Below the pieces are notes generated by a model. It made no database searches and was not told where the DNA came from. It worked only from the letters and a program-made list of their open reading frames with translations. From Octopus sinensis (Eukaryota), in assembly GCF_006345805.1 (NCBI RefSeq), contig NC_043001.1, positions 62,000,001-62,064,000 of the forward strand: DNA of 64,000 nt, given 5' to 3'. Made by a program: the position numbers and the translations under genes. How positions within the stretch are numbered: the first letter of the stretch is position 1; each line of letters opens with the position of its first letter. Below, piece by piece: positions 22,901-61,258 of this stretch.

Positions 22901-25520
22901 CTTAGATGCCATGCTCCGTATTTTCCACCTGGGCCTATAAAATGACTTTTGCTTCTTCATGTCTTAGAGTGTGTGCCTTAACTCTGACAATGCAACTTTA
23001 TTCTTTTGCATTGAAGAAATGGTCAAGAGCTATTCTCTCCACTAACACAACAGTCACAATGTCTTTCCTAATTGCCTCATCTAATTTATTAATTCTTATC
23101 TTCAACTTCTGCAACAATATTTTTTCTAAAACCTACTTCTTCTACTCTAATTACCCTCTTCAGAATATCTCACCACTATTTGTTTGTCTGAATGGACAGC
23201 TAGACGGATGAATAGGCAAATGGGCAGATGGATGGGACAGGTGGACAGACAAACTAATTGTCCTTTCTCACCCCCAGCTGCTACACTATATCCATTCCAA
23301 TCATTCTTCTATGAAAACTGAAGTTTTGCAGAATAACTTTATGACTGTATTTGTCGCACAAATATGATGTGCAGAAGTTTAACCCTTTTATTACCCAAAA
23401 CTTAAAACCTCATATTGTAACTTTATGTAACACTTTTTGCTAAGCTATATTCCAAATGATAGCTATGTATAATGAAAAAGTTGTTTTCTTTTTGCTGATT
23501 GATTAATGAATGAGCTAATTTATGTAGTTGCTCAACCTGCTACAAAAAGCAACCAAAGTTGTTTTACATCACAATTTATAAAAGTAAAAGGAAGGACACA
23601 TATGATAAATTCTGAATACTATGTCTGAGCAAAAAAAAAAGATGGTTATATATTCATGATTCTACAAGGGTTGAGCTGGAGCATTTATTTTTGAAGGATT
23701 AGTCACAGGAGGAAGGACAGTATCTATTCACTTTTTTCAATGTCCCTTAAGGAGTAGGAGAGAAACCTTGTTATCCTCAAGTTGAAAAACAAGTTCTAAT
23801 ATTTGCACTAAAATGGACTTGGCTATATGCATTAACGAGTCAGCCACAGGGCAATAGATTATGTCTTTCAATCAAATAACAACTAATTAATAAAACACAC
23901 ATCAAAATGATAAAAAAAAATACAAAAATAGTAGTACATCCCACTTAAGAAATAACATGTACCATCATTATCATTATAACGATCATTGTCATATGTAGGA
24001 TAAGCAAGATGGTCATTTTTTTTTTTTTTTTTTTTTTTGATGGTAGCATCAATGACTTTTCAGACATCAGGAAGAAGTATTGGCTTGTCTTGAAGTTTAA
24101 ACAACAGCAAGTATAAACTTAGTAATTCAGATTTGCAAGTATCATGATCAAATCACTTAGAAGTAGGTAAACAAATCTTAAGCCGATTTTTCACTTTGTT
24201 GCATTTTATTCTTTATTTTGTTAACTCCATTATTGTAACCCTTTTTTTGTATTATTCTTGAAAAGAAATTTGTTTTCCTAGTCATTATTTTTATTGTTTC
24301 TTCCTTAACATTATTCACTTCTTTATACTAATTTGTTTTTCCTTTTTGTCTCTTTTTCTTTGTTTATTTATTTATTTGGATGAGGAACTTTAGTTTCAAA
24401 CTTTCATCAAAGAATGTGGGAAATAGACAATAAAGTAAAGGGTTGATGTGGAGAAAATAAAGCTTATATAAATACATTTTTGTGTGTGCATGCATGCGTG
24501 TATGTACTGCTTGCTGTTGTGGTCATTTCAGGGGAAATTTCTTTTTGCCTATATCTGAAGTATGTTGTGTTTTCTAACACTATGCACCTTTAACCCTTTA
24601 GCACTTAAACCAGCCATATCTATCCAAAATATTCTACCTTTTTATGTTCATATTGGCCAAATCCAGCTTCTCACACCTACCCTACAATGTCAGACCAAAA
24701 TTTTAACTACTGTATCATTAGAATCTGAAAATTATAAGATAATGCATGATTAAAAGAAAAAAATGTGAATAAATAAGAATTACATTTAACAGATTAAATG
24801 GAGTTTTTCTTGGACAATGAACCACAGCTTCTGGCATTTAAACAATAGATGTACATTAACTTGGTAGTATTGATAATATTTACACTATAGAACTGCTTCT
24901 ATTGCATAATCTGAATTTTTATGTACATGTATGTATGAGCAATAATATATGTCTATGTATTTGTTATGCACTTTTTTTCTTTTACTAGATTTTATCTCCA
25001 GTCAGGATTTTGTTCTGTTTAATAGGCAGACTATTTTTTAAAAAATATGCACTCATACAAGTGCCACATAAAAAGCCATCCATGTTGGTGTCACGTAAAT
25101 GGCACCCATACCAGTGCCACATGATAAGCACCCAGTACACTCTGTAAAGTGGTTAGCATTAGGAAGAGCATTCAGCCATAGAAATCATGCCAAAACAGAC
25201 ATTTGGTGCCTGGTGCAGCTCCCCAGCTGGTCAGCTCCTGTCAAATCATTCAACCCATGCCAGCATGGAAAACAGACATTAAGTAATGATGATGATGTAT
25301 TTTTCACATGACCCTCCAATTTTATTTTTTATCAAATATTTCAAAATGTATTTCACTCTATATAAAGAACCGAGCTACCAAAATTGGAGTCAGTTATTGT
25401 AATTTCCACCAATTAAATTAAATAAAAAAAGTATATATACTCATTTATTACACACATGTGAGTGAGAACACTTTGAGATATTTTTGGTATCTAACATATG
25501 TCAGATACTGCGAGCGCTGC

Positions 25521-25532
25521 TTCTGATTGGTC
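25521..25532 (+). promoter_or_regulatory. Inverted CCAAT box (TTCTGATTGG) in the Crypton 5' end
   Basis: ATTGG at 25526-25530, ~300 bp upstream of the ATG, in a CpG-containing segment. Confidence 0.4.
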
Positions 25533-25741
25533 AATCCATGGTGATGACCCGAGGTCACGGTGACGGCACTACTTTTTGTCATTCATAAGTTACAACTAAA
25601 CTTTCACGAGCCGGTAGAATGTAGCCATATATTTAAACAAACATACTATCTTTTTTATACCAGATATCACTTAAAGTCATATACACATAAAATATAAACA
25701 TTTCTGGTCGTAATTCAATTTTTTGTTGCCAAAAAAATCAC

Positions 25742-25817
25742 AACATATATCGTCTGCTCGTTGATACTGTTGCAGTGCAAACATATATCGTCTGCTCGTC
25801 GATACTGTTGCAGTGCA
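25742..25817. repeat. 38-bp direct repeat x2 just upstream of the YR ATG
   Basis: AACATATATCGTCTGCTCGT(T/C)GATACTGTTGCAGTGCA twice, 1 mismatch. Confidence 0.9.
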
Positions 25818-25835
25818 GGTAGATCTATCAACAAG

Positions 25836-27404
25836 ATGGCTAATGTTATCGATATCAAGGTGAATGATTTTGTTAAGATTGATGGTAAAGATGGGGGAAG
25901 AGTATTATCCATTGTTCAACCTCTTGGAACATACAGAATGTTCAATGTGAAGATAAATACTGGCCAAGTTCGACATGTTGCTGGATACAGGTTAACAAAG
26001 GTACCTGAAACAGTGTCATCGACCAGTGGATTGTCATCGAACCCTGCATTTAACATCCCTGATGAGGTGTACAATGATCTTCTTCATGACGATTTCTTTG
26101 ATGATAGCCATAATGATCTTGAATTTCAACCGAGGTATGATCATTCTGGAATAGATAAATTCGTTCAAGGTAATCAAAATAAAAACACTCTTCGAAAAAC
26201 AAACTATGATGTTAAACGATTGTTTGCTTTCATGGCGACAAATGGCGACATGCGTCCAATTGAATCTATCGACAAAAGTGAACTTTGTGACATTCTCTGT
26301 ACTTTCTTTATTTCGTTACGAAAGCCGGACGGTAGCAACTATGAACCTTCATCTTTGATGGGAATGTTATCCAGTATTGAAAGATATCTGAAGTCAAAAC
26401 ACTACTCGACGTCACTATTCTCGGACGGGACATTCGTGAAACTACATGACATACTAAAAACGAAGCAAAAGCTGTTGAAAAGTGAAGGAATGGGAAACCT
26501 ACCTCGATGCACGGAATCTCTCTCCGACGATGATATCAACAAGCTATGGGAATGTGACCAGCTCGGTCCGAACACACCTGAATCCATCCTCAACACACTA
26601 TGGTGGAACAACACCGTTCACTTTGGTATCTGGAGTGTCAAACCTCACAACGACATGCGATGGGGCGATGTTTCTTTGCATGTTGACAATGAAGGCAAGG
26701 AATTCCTTCAGTTTAGGGAGCGACAGTCCAAAACTTGTCAAGATGATAATCTTGACCATGCACGTAACATCTACCCAAAAGCATGGGCGACGAATGATGA
26801 GCGTTGTCCAGTTAACCTGTACAAGCGTTTTGCTGATCTGAGACCATCAGATTATTCATCGCCGGATTCACCATTTTATTTGGCCACCAACTGCAAAGAT
26901 GCCTCCCATTCTCATCCCTGGTTTAAACGTCAACCGGTCGGTGTCAACAAACTAGGTACAATTATGAAAAGGATGGCTAAATCAGGTGGTTTGGACAATC
27001 AAAGATTCACGAACCATTCAGCACACAAATACCTTGTACAGAAGCTCGCTGACCAGAACATTCCTCCAACTGAAATCATGCAGATATCTGGACATCGTAA
27101 TGTGCAAAGCATCAATAGTTACAGCAATATTTCCATGGATCGTCTTCATGCCATCAGTAACATCCTTAGTAGCAACAACGACCAGCCTGGTTCGCTTGTA
27201 CCTCCGTCACACACAGCAGCAGCGAGTGCAAGTGAACTCCCCTCCACCGTCAACGTTACGTCGAGTCAATCTCAGAACGCTGTCACTTGCTTTGGTTCAT
27301 TGCACTCCATTTTCTCGGCTCCAATATATGGGGGAACAATCAATGTGAACTTCTTTGGTTCAGATGCAAAGCAACCTCGTCTCACAGATAATGAGGACTG
27401 TTAA
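25836..27404 (+). CDS. Crypton/DUF3504-type tyrosine recombinase (ZMYM/QRICH1/KCTD1-related), 522 aa, probably catalytically dead
   Basis: Intronless ORF, ATG in aagATGg; motifs NKNTLRKT, FFISLRKPDGSNYEPSSL, LGPNTPESILNTLWW..FGI(W)S, ERQSKT, RCPVNLY, PFYL, WFKRQPVGVNKL, TNHSA(H)K, ISGHRNVQSINSY. Confidence 0.85.
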   Translation: MANVIDIKVNDFVKIDGKDGGRVLSIVQPLGTYRMFNVKINTGQVRHVAGYRLTKVPETVSSTSGLSSNPAFNIPDEVYNDLLHDDFFDDSHNDLEFQPRYDHSGIDKFVQGNQNKNTLRKTNYDVKRLFAFMATNGDMRPIESIDKSELCDILCTFFISLRKPDGSNYEPSSLMGMLSSIERYLKSKHYSTSLFSDGTFVKLHDILKTKQKLLKSEGMGNLPRCTESLSDDDINKLWECDQLGPNTPESILNTLWWNNTVHFGIWSVKPHNDMRWGDVSLHVDNEGKEFLQFRERQSKTCQDDNLDHARNIYPKAWATNDERCPVNLYKRFADLRPSDYSSPDSPFYLATNCKDASHSHPWFKRQPVGVNKLGTIMKRMAKSGGLDNQRFTNHSAHKYLVQKLADQNIPPTEIMQISGHRNVQSINSYSNISMDRLHAISNILSSNNDQPGSLVPPSHTAAASASELPSTVNVTSSQSQNAVTCFGSLHSIFSAPIYGGTINVNFFGSDAKQPRLTDNEDC

Positions 27405-28159
27405 GTTTTCCTGGACTATTGCTGACTGACATTGCTACTCGAAAATATGTTTGAGTATTATTAAAGTTATTGAAGATTCAATCTGTGTTATGTATTTCTT
27501 GAACGTGAACTTGAATGTTAACAAAATGTTAAATAGTCATCAGTTATCAGTCATTTCACCTGAAAACTTAGCGCTATAAAGTCGGACTATCTTCCTGCGG
27601 CATGACATCTTTTACAGTTACACATTGTGACGTCACTGACGTGAAATCAAGCTGTATTCATGCGCGCTTCAACATGATGTGAAGGATTTAATTATTAAAT
27701 TAATAAAATATGGTCGTTTATTCGTGTGTAATAAATAAAATACCAAACTCATTCCCTATGGATACCATATTTATTACAACTCGTGGCTTGTAATAAATAC
27801 GGTATCCATAGGGAACTCGTTTAGTATTCTCTATATACTAACTTCTGTTTCTTTTGCTTGTTCTACCAAACCTATGTACATGTAACAGTTGCATGCATTC
27901 GAGGTATGCAATACATGCACTGCATGACCACTAATTTTGACATAAATCAAAAATAAATTCAAAATTTTCAAGTAACAGATCACCTCATAAATAATGTCCA
28001 AAATATCATATATGTAATTTCTATCACATTTTACAGTATTCTAAAATATCAAATGGTATTGATTGATACTGAAATGGATTTGGAACCCTTTAAACTTAAT
28101 ATAATTTCTTTTCATTATTAATTAATCTGACTGAATAAATTACTACTAATATTAACCCC

Positions 28160-29152
28160 TCAATGTTGGACGTATTGAAGGAGCATTTAAGGCACATAAT
28201 GCTTTATGAGTTCAAAAAGGGAAACAGTGCAGCAGAAACAACCCAAAACATTCATTCTGTTTATGGGGAAGAGTGCTTAAATGAAAGAAGTTGCAGAAGA
28301 TGGTTTACAAAGTTCAAAAGTAGTGATTTCAGCCTAAGAGAGAGGCCATAAATAGGATGCCCTGTTGGATTTGATGATGAGCTTCTTTTGTCAGAGCTTT
28401 AGAAGAATAATGCTGTGTCAGTTGAAGAATTGGCAAGCAAGCTCAAATCAAGCCTTCAACTGTTCACCACCATCTTCACCAGCTTGCCCAAACTCAGAAA
28501 ATGGATTCCACATTATTTGACAGAAACCAACTGAAAATCACAAGTGAACATCTGCACACCTCTTCACTCTCATGAATGCATCTCACCATTTTTGGACAGG
28601 TTAGTGACTGGATTTTTTAATGAAAATATTAAGTGATGTTGGCAATGACTTAGTTGTGGAGAATAGTCTAAATCTCAATCCAAAAAGGATCCCCATGCAA
28701 AAAAGATTCTTCTTTCTGTTTGGTAGGATTGCATTGGAGTCATCCACTTTGAGCTGCTACCAACTAATGCAACAATTATTGCTCACACCTATTGCCAAAA
28801 ATTAGAGTGTTTAGATTGCTCCTTTGAAAGAAAAAAGGCCTGTTTTGGTGAATCGTAAGGGAATGGCGTTTCATCATGATAATGTAAGGCCTCACAGGGC
28901 AAAGATTACATCAGACAAAATCAAAGAATTTGGCTGGGAAAAAATTCCTTACCTGTCTTATTTCTTGAACCTCACTCCTTCCATTTGTTTCGAAGTTTAC
29001 TGCATCATTTCGATGGATTAGTACTCAAAAGTCCCAAAGAGGTCAAAAATGACCTCTCTTCTTTCTCATCAAAACCAAAATAGTTTTTCACCAATGGAAT
29101 TAAAAATCTGATGAGTAGATGGAAGGAAGTCATTGATAATGATGGGAATTAT
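28160..29152 (+). pseudogene. mariner (Mos1/Hsmar-like) transposase pseudogene
   Basis: HTH EHLRHIMLYEFKKGNSAAETTQNI..RRWF, WIPHYL (WVPHEL), FHHDNVRPH, degenerate YSPDLAPS, C-terminal DGNY; many stops. Confidence 0.85.
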
Positions 29153-60469: not shown

Positions 60470-61258
60470 TAGAGTAAAATCAATTTACTAACATAAAGTG
60501 ACAGTCCTGATTAGGACAACGTTACTGCCTTCTTTAGCTCCAGGGGAACATTTTTTCCAGCTGGCTACTGATGCACAGCTGTGTCTTTATACTTCGAACG
60601 AGGGAGCTAATGTCTCCACTCAGTCTTAAACAGTACCTGTGGACCATGGTTTCTGGGTTATTTCTCTTCATGGTTTGTAGGTACTGTTTAAGGCTGAGTG
60701 GTGACATTAGCTCCTTTGTTCGAGATATAAGGACACAGTTGTGCATCAGTAGCCAGCTGGAAAAAATGTTTTCCTGAAGCTAAAAAAAGGAAGTAACATC
60801 GTCCTAATCAGGACTGCCACTTTACATTGGCAAATAGATTTTATTCTGTAGTACTGTTACTACTTACTTCTTGCTCGGAGATTTAAAACTTATTGTTTTC
60901 CTCTTTACAGGATCAGTGTCTGTGTGTTACTTTAAAAGTATATACCTCAAACAAGGCCTAGTGCTGCCATCTCTAGCCAACCGTTTTCCTGTGCTGATGA
61001 AGGGAAACAACTCAGAAACCATGGTCCACAGGTATCCACAGGTACCTTTTAAGGTTGAGTGGAGGCATTAGCTCCCTTGTTTGAGGTATAAGGACGCAGT
61101 TGTGTGTTGGTAGCCAGCTGCAACAGATGTTTACTGGTGCTAAAAAAAGTAGTAACATCGTCCTAACCAGGACTGCCGCTATATATTGGCAAATAGATTT
61201 TACTCTATAGTACTGTTACTACTTCTTGCTCAGATGTTTAAAACTAATTGCTTTCCTC

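Follow-up and report, generated by a model that had tools for sequence, protein, structure and literature searches.

Introduction

Among the tyrosine recombinase (YR) transposons known as Cryptons, the animal group CryptonA was defined by Kojima and Jurka (2011), whose account reports no terminal repeats in animal Cryptons (PMC3212892). According to a 2026 review, the mechanism by which Cryptons move has not been shown experimentally, and the model presented there assumes a double-stranded circle (PMC13565253). An active CryptonF is described as excising cleanly yet gaining copies (PMC9977147), and salmon Cryptons are reported to share terminal similarity with Eulor5/6 (PMC5753468). Outside the Cryptons, integron attC sites are described as showing little sequence conservation and as being recombined while the bottom strand is folded, replication then resolving the product (PMC2727003; PMC3458562), and DIRS elements are described as containing an internal region whose sequence complements both the beginning of the left end and the terminus of the right end (PMC6681497). 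Here we describe a Crypton-type element in a 64,000-nt stretch of contig NC_043001.1 from Octopus sinensis, hereafter termed the window, to whose positions all octopus coordinates refer.

At about 25445-27834, the locus contains a full-length copy of a CryptonA transposon that is present many times in octopus. The copy is catalytically damaged and represents a previously undescribed, inactive member of this group; taken alone, it is an ordinary decayed copy. It resembles CryptonA-1_OL, -2_SP and -1_LG, as these are described, in carrying one DUF3504-type YR open reading frame (ORF) and no C-terminal domain (PMC3212892). CryptonA is also reported to share with the octopus family a great excess of non-autonomous derivatives, and to generate no target-site duplication (PMC3212892). 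The length of the window element, approximately 2.4 kb, compares with 1.2-2.3 kb for the animal Crypton elements listed in that study (PMC3212892). The element differs from CryptonA as published in its inverted 5′ arm, 3′ hairpin, internal complementary segment and strand-specific folding motifs, and the window copy differs further in lacking two arginines of the catalytic tetrad. This plan of the ends, together with the strand signature of the group, appears to have been undescribed so far: no description of these ends was found in the literature, with Repbase, Dfam and subscription reviews, which may note the hairpin, lying outside the search.

Results and Discussion

A damaged recombinase in a multi-copy octopus family

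The only long ORF of the element (Table 1) encodes 522 amino acids (aa) without an internal stop, and its product matches the Pfam family DUF3504 (E 5e-25) as well as QRICH1 and Phage_integrase. Because Kojima and Jurka tie DUF3504 to CryptonA (PMC3212892), the element is classified, by the sequence of its recombinase, as a CryptonA. Neither Pfam nor the predicted structure revealed GCR1_C or any other C-terminal domain in the ORF, Pfam revealed no reverse transcriptase or RNase H domain there, and RepHel (HUH nuclease plus helicase) was absent from the element by Pfam and an ORF check. The best match to the predicted recombinase structure (mean predicted local distance difference test score 77) is QRICH1, followed by structures of Cre. 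The DUF3504 ORF and the layout of the ends support the proposal, made in an earlier note on this DNA, of a complete Crypton-type element with a tyrosine recombinase and asymmetric ends.

Other octopus copies were viewed through protein clusters and through the contigs of four sequencing runs (four organism labels) on positions 25300-28100. The closest protein relative is from Octopus sinensis (95%), and the 90% protein cluster includes 10 O. vulgaris proteins on six chromosome-size contigs, some of them full length and most of them fragments. Among 36 aligned relatives, residues R266, H394, R397, H420 and Y429 are invariant or nearly so, and the R-H-R-Y tetrad is intact in the family, with P0060, P0063 and P0002 keeping R266, H394, R397 and Y429. 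The window copy retains H394, H420 and Y429 and carries W266 and H397 in place of the catalytic arginines, such that it lacks the intact tetrad by which an autonomous copy would be recognized. Arginine codons are present in the majority contigs of all four runs, and both losses are CpG-type transitions, as are 16 of the 25 transitions among 31 differences taken from 40 of the 78 rows. The intact arginines of the sister copies and the CpG-type nature of these changes indicate that the family includes intact members and that the window copy is one that has decayed. The observed/expected CpG ratio is 0.91 within 25434-27839 versus 0.26 across the remaining window, which suggests that the family is young or recently acquired and is now decaying.

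Additional domains were noted in two proteins. In the window recombinase (P0001), residues 5-58 are confidently predicted to form an N-terminal five-stranded beta domain that has no Pfam match, is common to a subset of relatives, and appears Tudor/SH3-like in the model. P0054, a predicted O. vulgaris protein, joins about 100 aa of the recombinase (86% identity) to DUF4817/PAX/HTH domains, and is probably a chimeric prediction across nested transposons.

Contig depths, which are sums over contigs rather than copy numbers, amount to 36-169 in the ORF core (26146-27085) and to 7-20 for right-flank contigs, whereas they reach 4,100-75,000 in the terminal bins, of which two lie at the 5′ end and one at the 3′ end. 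Two internal-deletion joints were found among the contig rows listed. This depth pattern fits a small number of autonomous copies accompanied by many short non-autonomous derivatives, and the combination of dispersed copies with shared ends and abundant derivatives is that of CryptonA. Both further copies and derivatives had been anticipated by the earlier note, and they were found in the O. vulgaris protein cluster and in the contigs of the four runs.

The boundaries of these copies can be read from loose ends, positions at which the contigs cease to match the window. Among the rows listed, loose ends with mixed flanks accumulate on the 5′ side before 25443-25445, where each row comprises 7-9 contigs, with fewer at 25432-25435, to which only a few contigs match back. 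On the 3′ side they lie behind 27837 (7 and 9 contigs) and 27832 (3 contigs). These positions indicate that the copies share the boundaries originally proposed to within about 10 nt, and that they mostly do not share the 8-bp direct repeats. The repeat TATATACT consequently does not hold as a terminal repeat of the family: most octopus copies diverge at 25443-25445 and behind 27832-27837, and more distant relatives possess no shared direct repeat. The left flank has no contig cover in the four runs, and the right-flank contigs of three runs start at 27808, leaving 30 letters up to 27837, below our 31-letter bridging rule. Neither a circle junction nor an empty-site joint was found in the contigs of the four runs, which drop rare forms, and this result is therefore not evidence. 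A look for RNA data sets containing the sequence likewise listed none, which has no bearing on its expression.

Domestication offers a different account of the locus, in which a single-copy DUF3504 gene of the KIAA1958/ZMYM type lies among incidental repeats. The absence of two catalytic arginines from the window copy would be in keeping with such a gene, as would the database designation of relatives as 'zinc finger MYM-type 2-like'. However, the dispersed copies are numerous, several are fragments, and full-length ones have intact arginines; both arginine changes are CpG-type transitions; and sharp shared ends adjoin different flanks. We regard domestication as scarcely credible. The multi-copy evidence refutes it, and the family is not a single conserved locus whose tetrad is lost in all alleles.

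A common plan of the element ends

The repeats and coordinates listed previously were all verified in the window. The sequence TATATACT occurs at 25434 and 27832; ATTTATTACA lies on the + strand at 25443 and 27769 and on the − strand at 27727 and 27789; and the segments 27752-27779 and 27788-27815 are complementary at 27 of 28 positions around a central CTCGTGGC. Arm length and the inverted match of the 5′ end had been understated. The palindrome extends to arms of 49 nt at 84% (27731-27779 and 27788-27836), and the motif at the 5′ end is a perfect 13-bp inverted copy of 27724-27736, a match not encountered in any of 5000 random pairs of comparable windows. The 3′ region folds with z = -9.2, none of 200 shuffles being equally stable, and the 5′ end folds no better than its shuffles (z = 0.36). 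As TATATACT is present 10 times in the TA-rich 64-kb window (4 on the + strand and 6 on the − strand), this 8-mer is weak evidence by itself. No second copy of the element termini was found within the 64-kb window.

Informative relatives were obtained from G001, a 12-Mb assembly labelled bacterial. The parts of it that were read are animal-looking, repeat-rich DNA, likely derived from host contamination. The DUF3504 family profile yielded 48 matches in this assembly. Our sample, 745 kb in total, comprises 20 loci picked by profile matches together with 60 contigs selected by their number. A genome scan identified locus L013, with 45% aa identity to the window recombinase, in which a 29-bp 5′ arm recurs in inverted orientation directly beside a terminal hairpin (67-bp arms, 28-nt centre) that terminates at a TA run. 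The recombinase ORF of L013 is broken by an insertion with a near-perfect 118-bp palindrome (L013:2341-2567).

A hairpin lies downstream of the recombinase gene in eight loci (L013, L051, L055, L058, L060, L061, L063 and L068), which represent four hairpin clusters. In relatives, arms are approximately 40-80 bp in length, and the apical loops vary in both length and sequence. The plan common to these ends is that the 5′ arm, which we designate A, recurs inverted and adjoining the 3′ terminal hairpin. Given this arrangement, an internal segment composed of the inverted arm A and the left hairpin arm B (A|B) constitutes the reverse complement of the two joined element ends. In four relative families with mappable ends, the joined ends correspond to the reverse complement of A|B plus 2 nt. 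An early estimate of this register, in which the joined ends exceeded the internal copy by 6 nt, was dropped when empty sites and multi-copy families gave 2 nt. When compared with shuffled probes, the 5′ arm scored higher in 8 of 18 tested ends, and the 13-bp arm of the window did not pass this test.

More distant DUF3504-like recombinases (28-32% identity) were found at eight loci, L001-L008, in a metagenome scan. They belong to a multi-copy family of approximately 4-5 kb with a sharp shared 5′ end, CGCATTG..ACGAAAGTG, that is of a different type, and three copies reside on one 86-kb contig. A viral scan returned four marginal matches.

Insertion point and crossover

The site of integration is revealed by one target repeat for which both empty and filled copies are available. 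Of seven empty copies (L131-L137), six read GGCTC followed by ATATACC, and a reversed control gave none. Where the site is filled, by either of two different families, host bases are preserved on each side without duplication, and in both cases the insertion contributes its own TA-containing 3′ end. Relatives insert at one point before (A/G/T)TA without a target-site duplication. This observation was made at the loci of the relatives; the contigs yielded no empty site for the window locus.

Two multi-copy families define the ends more closely. For one non-autonomous family, 13 distinct full copies were recovered among 25 loci returned; these start with TTATTAT after a variable base and end with AAGAGC plus 3 nt, the next bases being RTA in 8 of the 13. 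An insertion of this family is present in L061 and absent from L063 and L068. The second family, with 10 loci, ends with GTT plus 2 nt, and among the nine ends found the next bases are ATA in seven cases, TTA in one and ATG in one. Both families have sharp shared ends and no direct repeat, and the bases preceding the 5′ TTA are variable among relatives. On the antisense strand, each of the two proposed cut points comes after TA and one further base, the arrangement that equivalent half-sites would give. Application of the +2 register to the window predicts an element spanning 25445-27834 with host ATA after it. These ends would explain the pile-ups of loose ends at 25443-25445 and 27837, and would make the left TATATACT host DNA and the right TATATACT part element, part host.

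The target itself has an unusual form. At least two different CryptonA families have used one and the same base of a further Crypton-type non-autonomous repeat as their insertion point (L061:4070-4095, L061:6000-6030, L058, L066 and L068), which is empty in L131-L137. This target is palindromic, its 9-bp arms flanking an asymmetric 8-bp spacer at whose edge it is cut, and has the shape of loxP.

The earlier note had interpreted the palindrome of the window, with its 28-bp arms and 8-nt spacer, as a loxP/FRT-like crossover site and the 8-bp terminal repeats as excision sites. The inverted arms and asymmetric spacer of the window copy do resemble a YR site, described as having 11-13-bp arms and a 6-8-bp spacer (PMC3212892), and the predicted protein fold is Cre-like. 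Fungal and oomycete Cryptons are reported to have 4-6-bp terminal repeats (PMC3212892), and a few octopus contigs carry ATATACTC before the 5′ arm. However, the hairpin arms are 43 bp in the window and longer in relatives, loop length and sequence are not conserved, and the crossovers mapped in relatives coincide with the element ends, where the base of the hairpin lies, rather than with the loop. No conserved 6-8-bp spacer serving as the crossover between 11-13-bp arms was found in relatives. Moreover, most octopus contigs listed diverge inside the repeats, and a similar 6-bp repeat seen at one site in L063 has no counterpart in L061, which belongs to the same family. We consider a loxP/FRT-like role for this palindrome highly improbable.

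A strand-specific hairpin signature

A search of the G001 sample yielded 112 hairpins of 70-230 nt. Among their 201 two-by-two internal loops, 98 are GA/GA or TC/TC, a class predicted by independence to make up 0.6%, and a single loop has the reverse order, AG/AG or CT/CT. Strands are mixed in only 1 of the 29 hairpins with at least two tandem G·A loops. Nearly all of the loop contexts listed are pyrimidine-GA-purine, and tandems of this kind are reported to form sheared G·A pairs (PMC10085684). The usual apex, C-GNA-G, shares its strand with the G·A loops in 38 of 39 hairpins. When hairpins are grouped into clusters, 27 have G·A loops, 4 of these have no classifiable apex, and loop and apex share a strand in 22 of 23. 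GCGNAGC mini-hairpins are described as extraordinarily stable in DNA, an RNA counterpart being much less so (PMC13037366), and the folding substrate is thus more likely to be DNA than a transcript.

All eight hairpins linked to a recombinase gene carry TC/TC on the coding strand. Of the 43 loops in 15 hairpins oriented by arm A and the terminal TATA, 24 are TC/TC and none is GA/GA on the sense strand. In both sets, therefore, the strand that bears G·A is the antisense strand. The 13 hairpins oriented by arm A alone present a caveat to this bias, with 2 GA/GA versus 7 TC/TC loops.

In the window hairpin, which has 43-bp arms with 6 mismatches, the antisense strand folds at -31.1 kcal/mol versus -26.4 kcal/mol. 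The relatives exhibit the attC-like combination of an imperfect palindrome, strand-specific marks and little sequence conservation, and the window exhibits it weakly. The suggestion in the earlier note of a hairpin or single-stranded DNA step accordingly gains support from the strand signature of the relatives, with only a faint echo in the window copy.

Comparison with described recombination systems

CryptonF and CryptonS elements of fungi, oomycetes and Chlamydomonas (CryptonF-1_cRei) share YR-only mobility, the lack of a target-site duplication, and a short target motif with the families studied here. They differ in carrying either fixed terminal direct repeats of 4-6 bp or a donor motif that matches the target, neither of which is present in the families we mapped; in particular, no fixed 4-6-bp direct repeat occupies both termini of all copies.

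The integron attC/IntI system is similar in its tyrosine recombinase, its imperfect and sequence-variable palindrome, its strand-specific features and its single crossover point. The Crypton differs in possessing no cassette array or attI, and its strand asymmetry is embodied in tandem G·A and GNA loops rather than the extrahelical bases of attC. Unlike in attC, the Crypton cut would lie at the base of the hairpin, and the similarity of the recombinase to IntI4 is marginal (E 0.2). DIRS1-type elements share an internal complementary segment and a tyrosine recombinase, whereas the Crypton has one ORF, no reverse transcriptase/RNase H and no long inverted terminal repeats. Asymmetric ends, terminal hairpins, the absence of target-site duplication and a strand-specific circle are described for IS200/IS605, Helitron/Helentron and Replitron elements (PMC13565253; PMC8969392). 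These employ an HUH nuclease, whereas the Crypton enzyme is a tyrosine recombinase without RepHel.

A possible single-strand route and its alternatives

The strand bias of the folding motifs and the plan of the ends lead us to propose that CryptonA elements of this kind move via a folded, antisense single-stranded circle that integrates in the manner of attC, an interpretation that we favour as probable. In this route, the antisense strand would become exposed, for instance at a replication fork or by cruciform extrusion, and would fold at the hairpin. Pairing with the internal A|B segment would then bring the two element ends next to each other, whereupon the recombinase would cut the antisense strand at both ends and join them into a dumbbell-shaped single-stranded circle. 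Fold-back of this circle would supply a duplex recombination site with a 2-nt bulge, a single strand exchange would join the folded site to a TA-rich duplex target at (A/G/T)TA, and replication would resolve the junction, as it does for integron attC. The window copy would require recombinase supplied by an intact sister copy. More broadly, animal CryptonA might be eukaryotic transposons whose movement depends on a tyrosine recombinase with single-stranded DNA as its substrate, in which the antisense strand folds by means of sheared G·A and GNA motifs, an internal region splints the ends, and one exchange is followed by replication. We offer this generalization tentatively, at somewhat short of even chances.

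The classical double-stranded route provides an alternative in which the recombinase binds arm A and the 3′ end as duplex DNA, releases the element as a double-stranded circle and inserts it through two strand exchanges, with A|B and the hairpin serving as accessory sites or as a regulatory cruciform for synapsis or transcription. This is the working model in the published accounts (PMC3212892; PMC13565253), and clean excisions and target-matched insertions are reported for CryptonF-1_cRei (PMC9977147). The recombinase fold, which is nearest Cre in the prediction, and the repetition of a TTATT-like motif in the ends would also suit it. However, this route does not account for sheared G·A loops and GNA apices that keep to one strand although the arms that contain them are unrelated in sequence, and it needs an overlap of homology between donor and target, whereas the empty sites reveal a single crossover point with no matching 6-8 bp. 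On balance we judge the double-stranded route unlikely, if still a serious contender. Less likely again is the possibility that the hairpin folds for another step, as a priming or replication signal through which the excised circle is made double-stranded or is amplified, while recombination takes place on duplex sites. Mini-hairpins are described at the origins and priming signals of single-stranded DNA phages (PMC13037366), and CryptonF copy number is reported to have risen despite excision (PMC9977147), but the fixed-register match between the internal segment and the joined ends would then have no explanation.

Several observations weigh against the single-strand route or the register on which it draws. 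No circle was seen, and Cre ranks above integron integrase among matches to the predicted recombinase fold. It is in relatives, all from the single assembly G001, that the strand signature is strong; in the window, the hairpin contains one decayed G·A loop and no GNA apex and thus shows the signature weakly. Two of the 15 oriented hairpins (L072) are oriented by each other's inverted copy, and four of the 15 contain no such loops. In L057, L064 and L069 a hairpin lies on the opposite strand near recombinase fragments; we take these hairpins to be separate nested elements, nesting being proved for L061 only. The ratio of G·T to A·C mismatches, 47:29 in these hairpins and 77:57 in other hairpins, does not separate the two groups. 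No clear copy of the end plan was found in the distant loci L001-L008. Among the rows listed, divergence begins behind 27832 in three octopus contigs, 2 nt short of the end that the register predicts. Finally, a flank-triplet test of the +2 rule gave 12 of 17 matches at +2, as compared with 8 at -2, 6 at 0 and 4 at +4; it is blurred by TA periodicity, and 4 of the 17 5′ matches appear spurious. A first rule-based attempt did not discriminate, with 9 of 16 matches at +2, 7 at +4 and 7 at +6. The support that these triplets lend to the +2 rule is no more than suggestive.

Features of the locus and neighbouring sequence

Table 1. Positions in the Octopus sinensis window of the CryptonA element and its parts
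Feature	Coordinates	Strand	Basis or remark
TATATACTC, left copy of the 8-bp repeat	25434..25442	+	Likely host target DNA, not element
5′ arm A, ATTTATTACACAC	25443..25455	+	13/13 inverted match to 27724-27736; loose ends; register
Element 5′ end	25443-25445, predicted 25445	+	Loose ends of other copies; register
5′ subterminal region, likely promoter region from its sequence	25487..25560	+	22-nt palindrome at 25487-25508; ATTGG (reverse CCAAT) box near 25527
38-bp tandem duplication	25742..25817	+	Contigs from other copies in 4/4 runs carry a single unit
Intronless ORF, 522 aa, DUF3504-type tyrosine recombinase	25836..27404	+	Pfam; alignments; Cre-like predicted fold
Internal inverted copy of arm A, adjoining hairpin base	27724..27736	-	First half of internal complementary region
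Left hairpin arm B	27737..27779	+	Second half of internal complementary region
Decayed tandem G·A loop, antisense strand	CTCA 27748-27751 opposite CTCG 27816-27819		Pair-by-pair table
8-nt apical loop, CTCGTGGC	27780..27787	.	Not C-GNA-G, unlike most relatives
Right hairpin arm	27788..27830	-	43 bp with 6 mismatches: on antisense, 4 G·T and one tandem G·A
3′ end region	27831..27839	+	True end between 27832 and 27837; includes right copy of the 8-bp repeat
Predicted last element base, host ATA next	27834	+	+2 register

To the left of the Crypton, a short repeat-like element at 25049-25300 has an (ATG)n tail and, within it, a direct repeat of 28 nt; we take the element to be a common octopus repeat. 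To the right, a decayed mariner-type transposase occupies 28139-29083, with a match to HTH_48 (Mos1) at 28139-28348 (E 5e-23), downstream of which lie further transposase-looking fragments with no Pfam match. At 60471-60847 the window contains a large imperfect palindrome, with arms of 119 nt at 87% and 65 nt at 83%, that is MITE-like (resembling miniature inverted-repeat transposable elements) and is situated beside TA-rich repeats.

Implications

Because the end plan specifies exact substrates, strand, cut points and target, it renders the question of Crypton transposition directly testable with a natural intact copy. It also furnishes a structural rule by which hairpin-ended non-autonomous repeats in marine invertebrate genomes can be recognized and classified. 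If the single-strand route is correct, a recombinase that reads structure and acts on single strands would be added to those of eukaryotes; integron attC recombination would then have an equivalent there, and the DIRS internal complementary region a parallel that involves DNA only. It would likewise reveal what the ancestors of the domesticated DUF3504 proteins (ZMYM2-4, QRICH1 and KIAA1958) bound.

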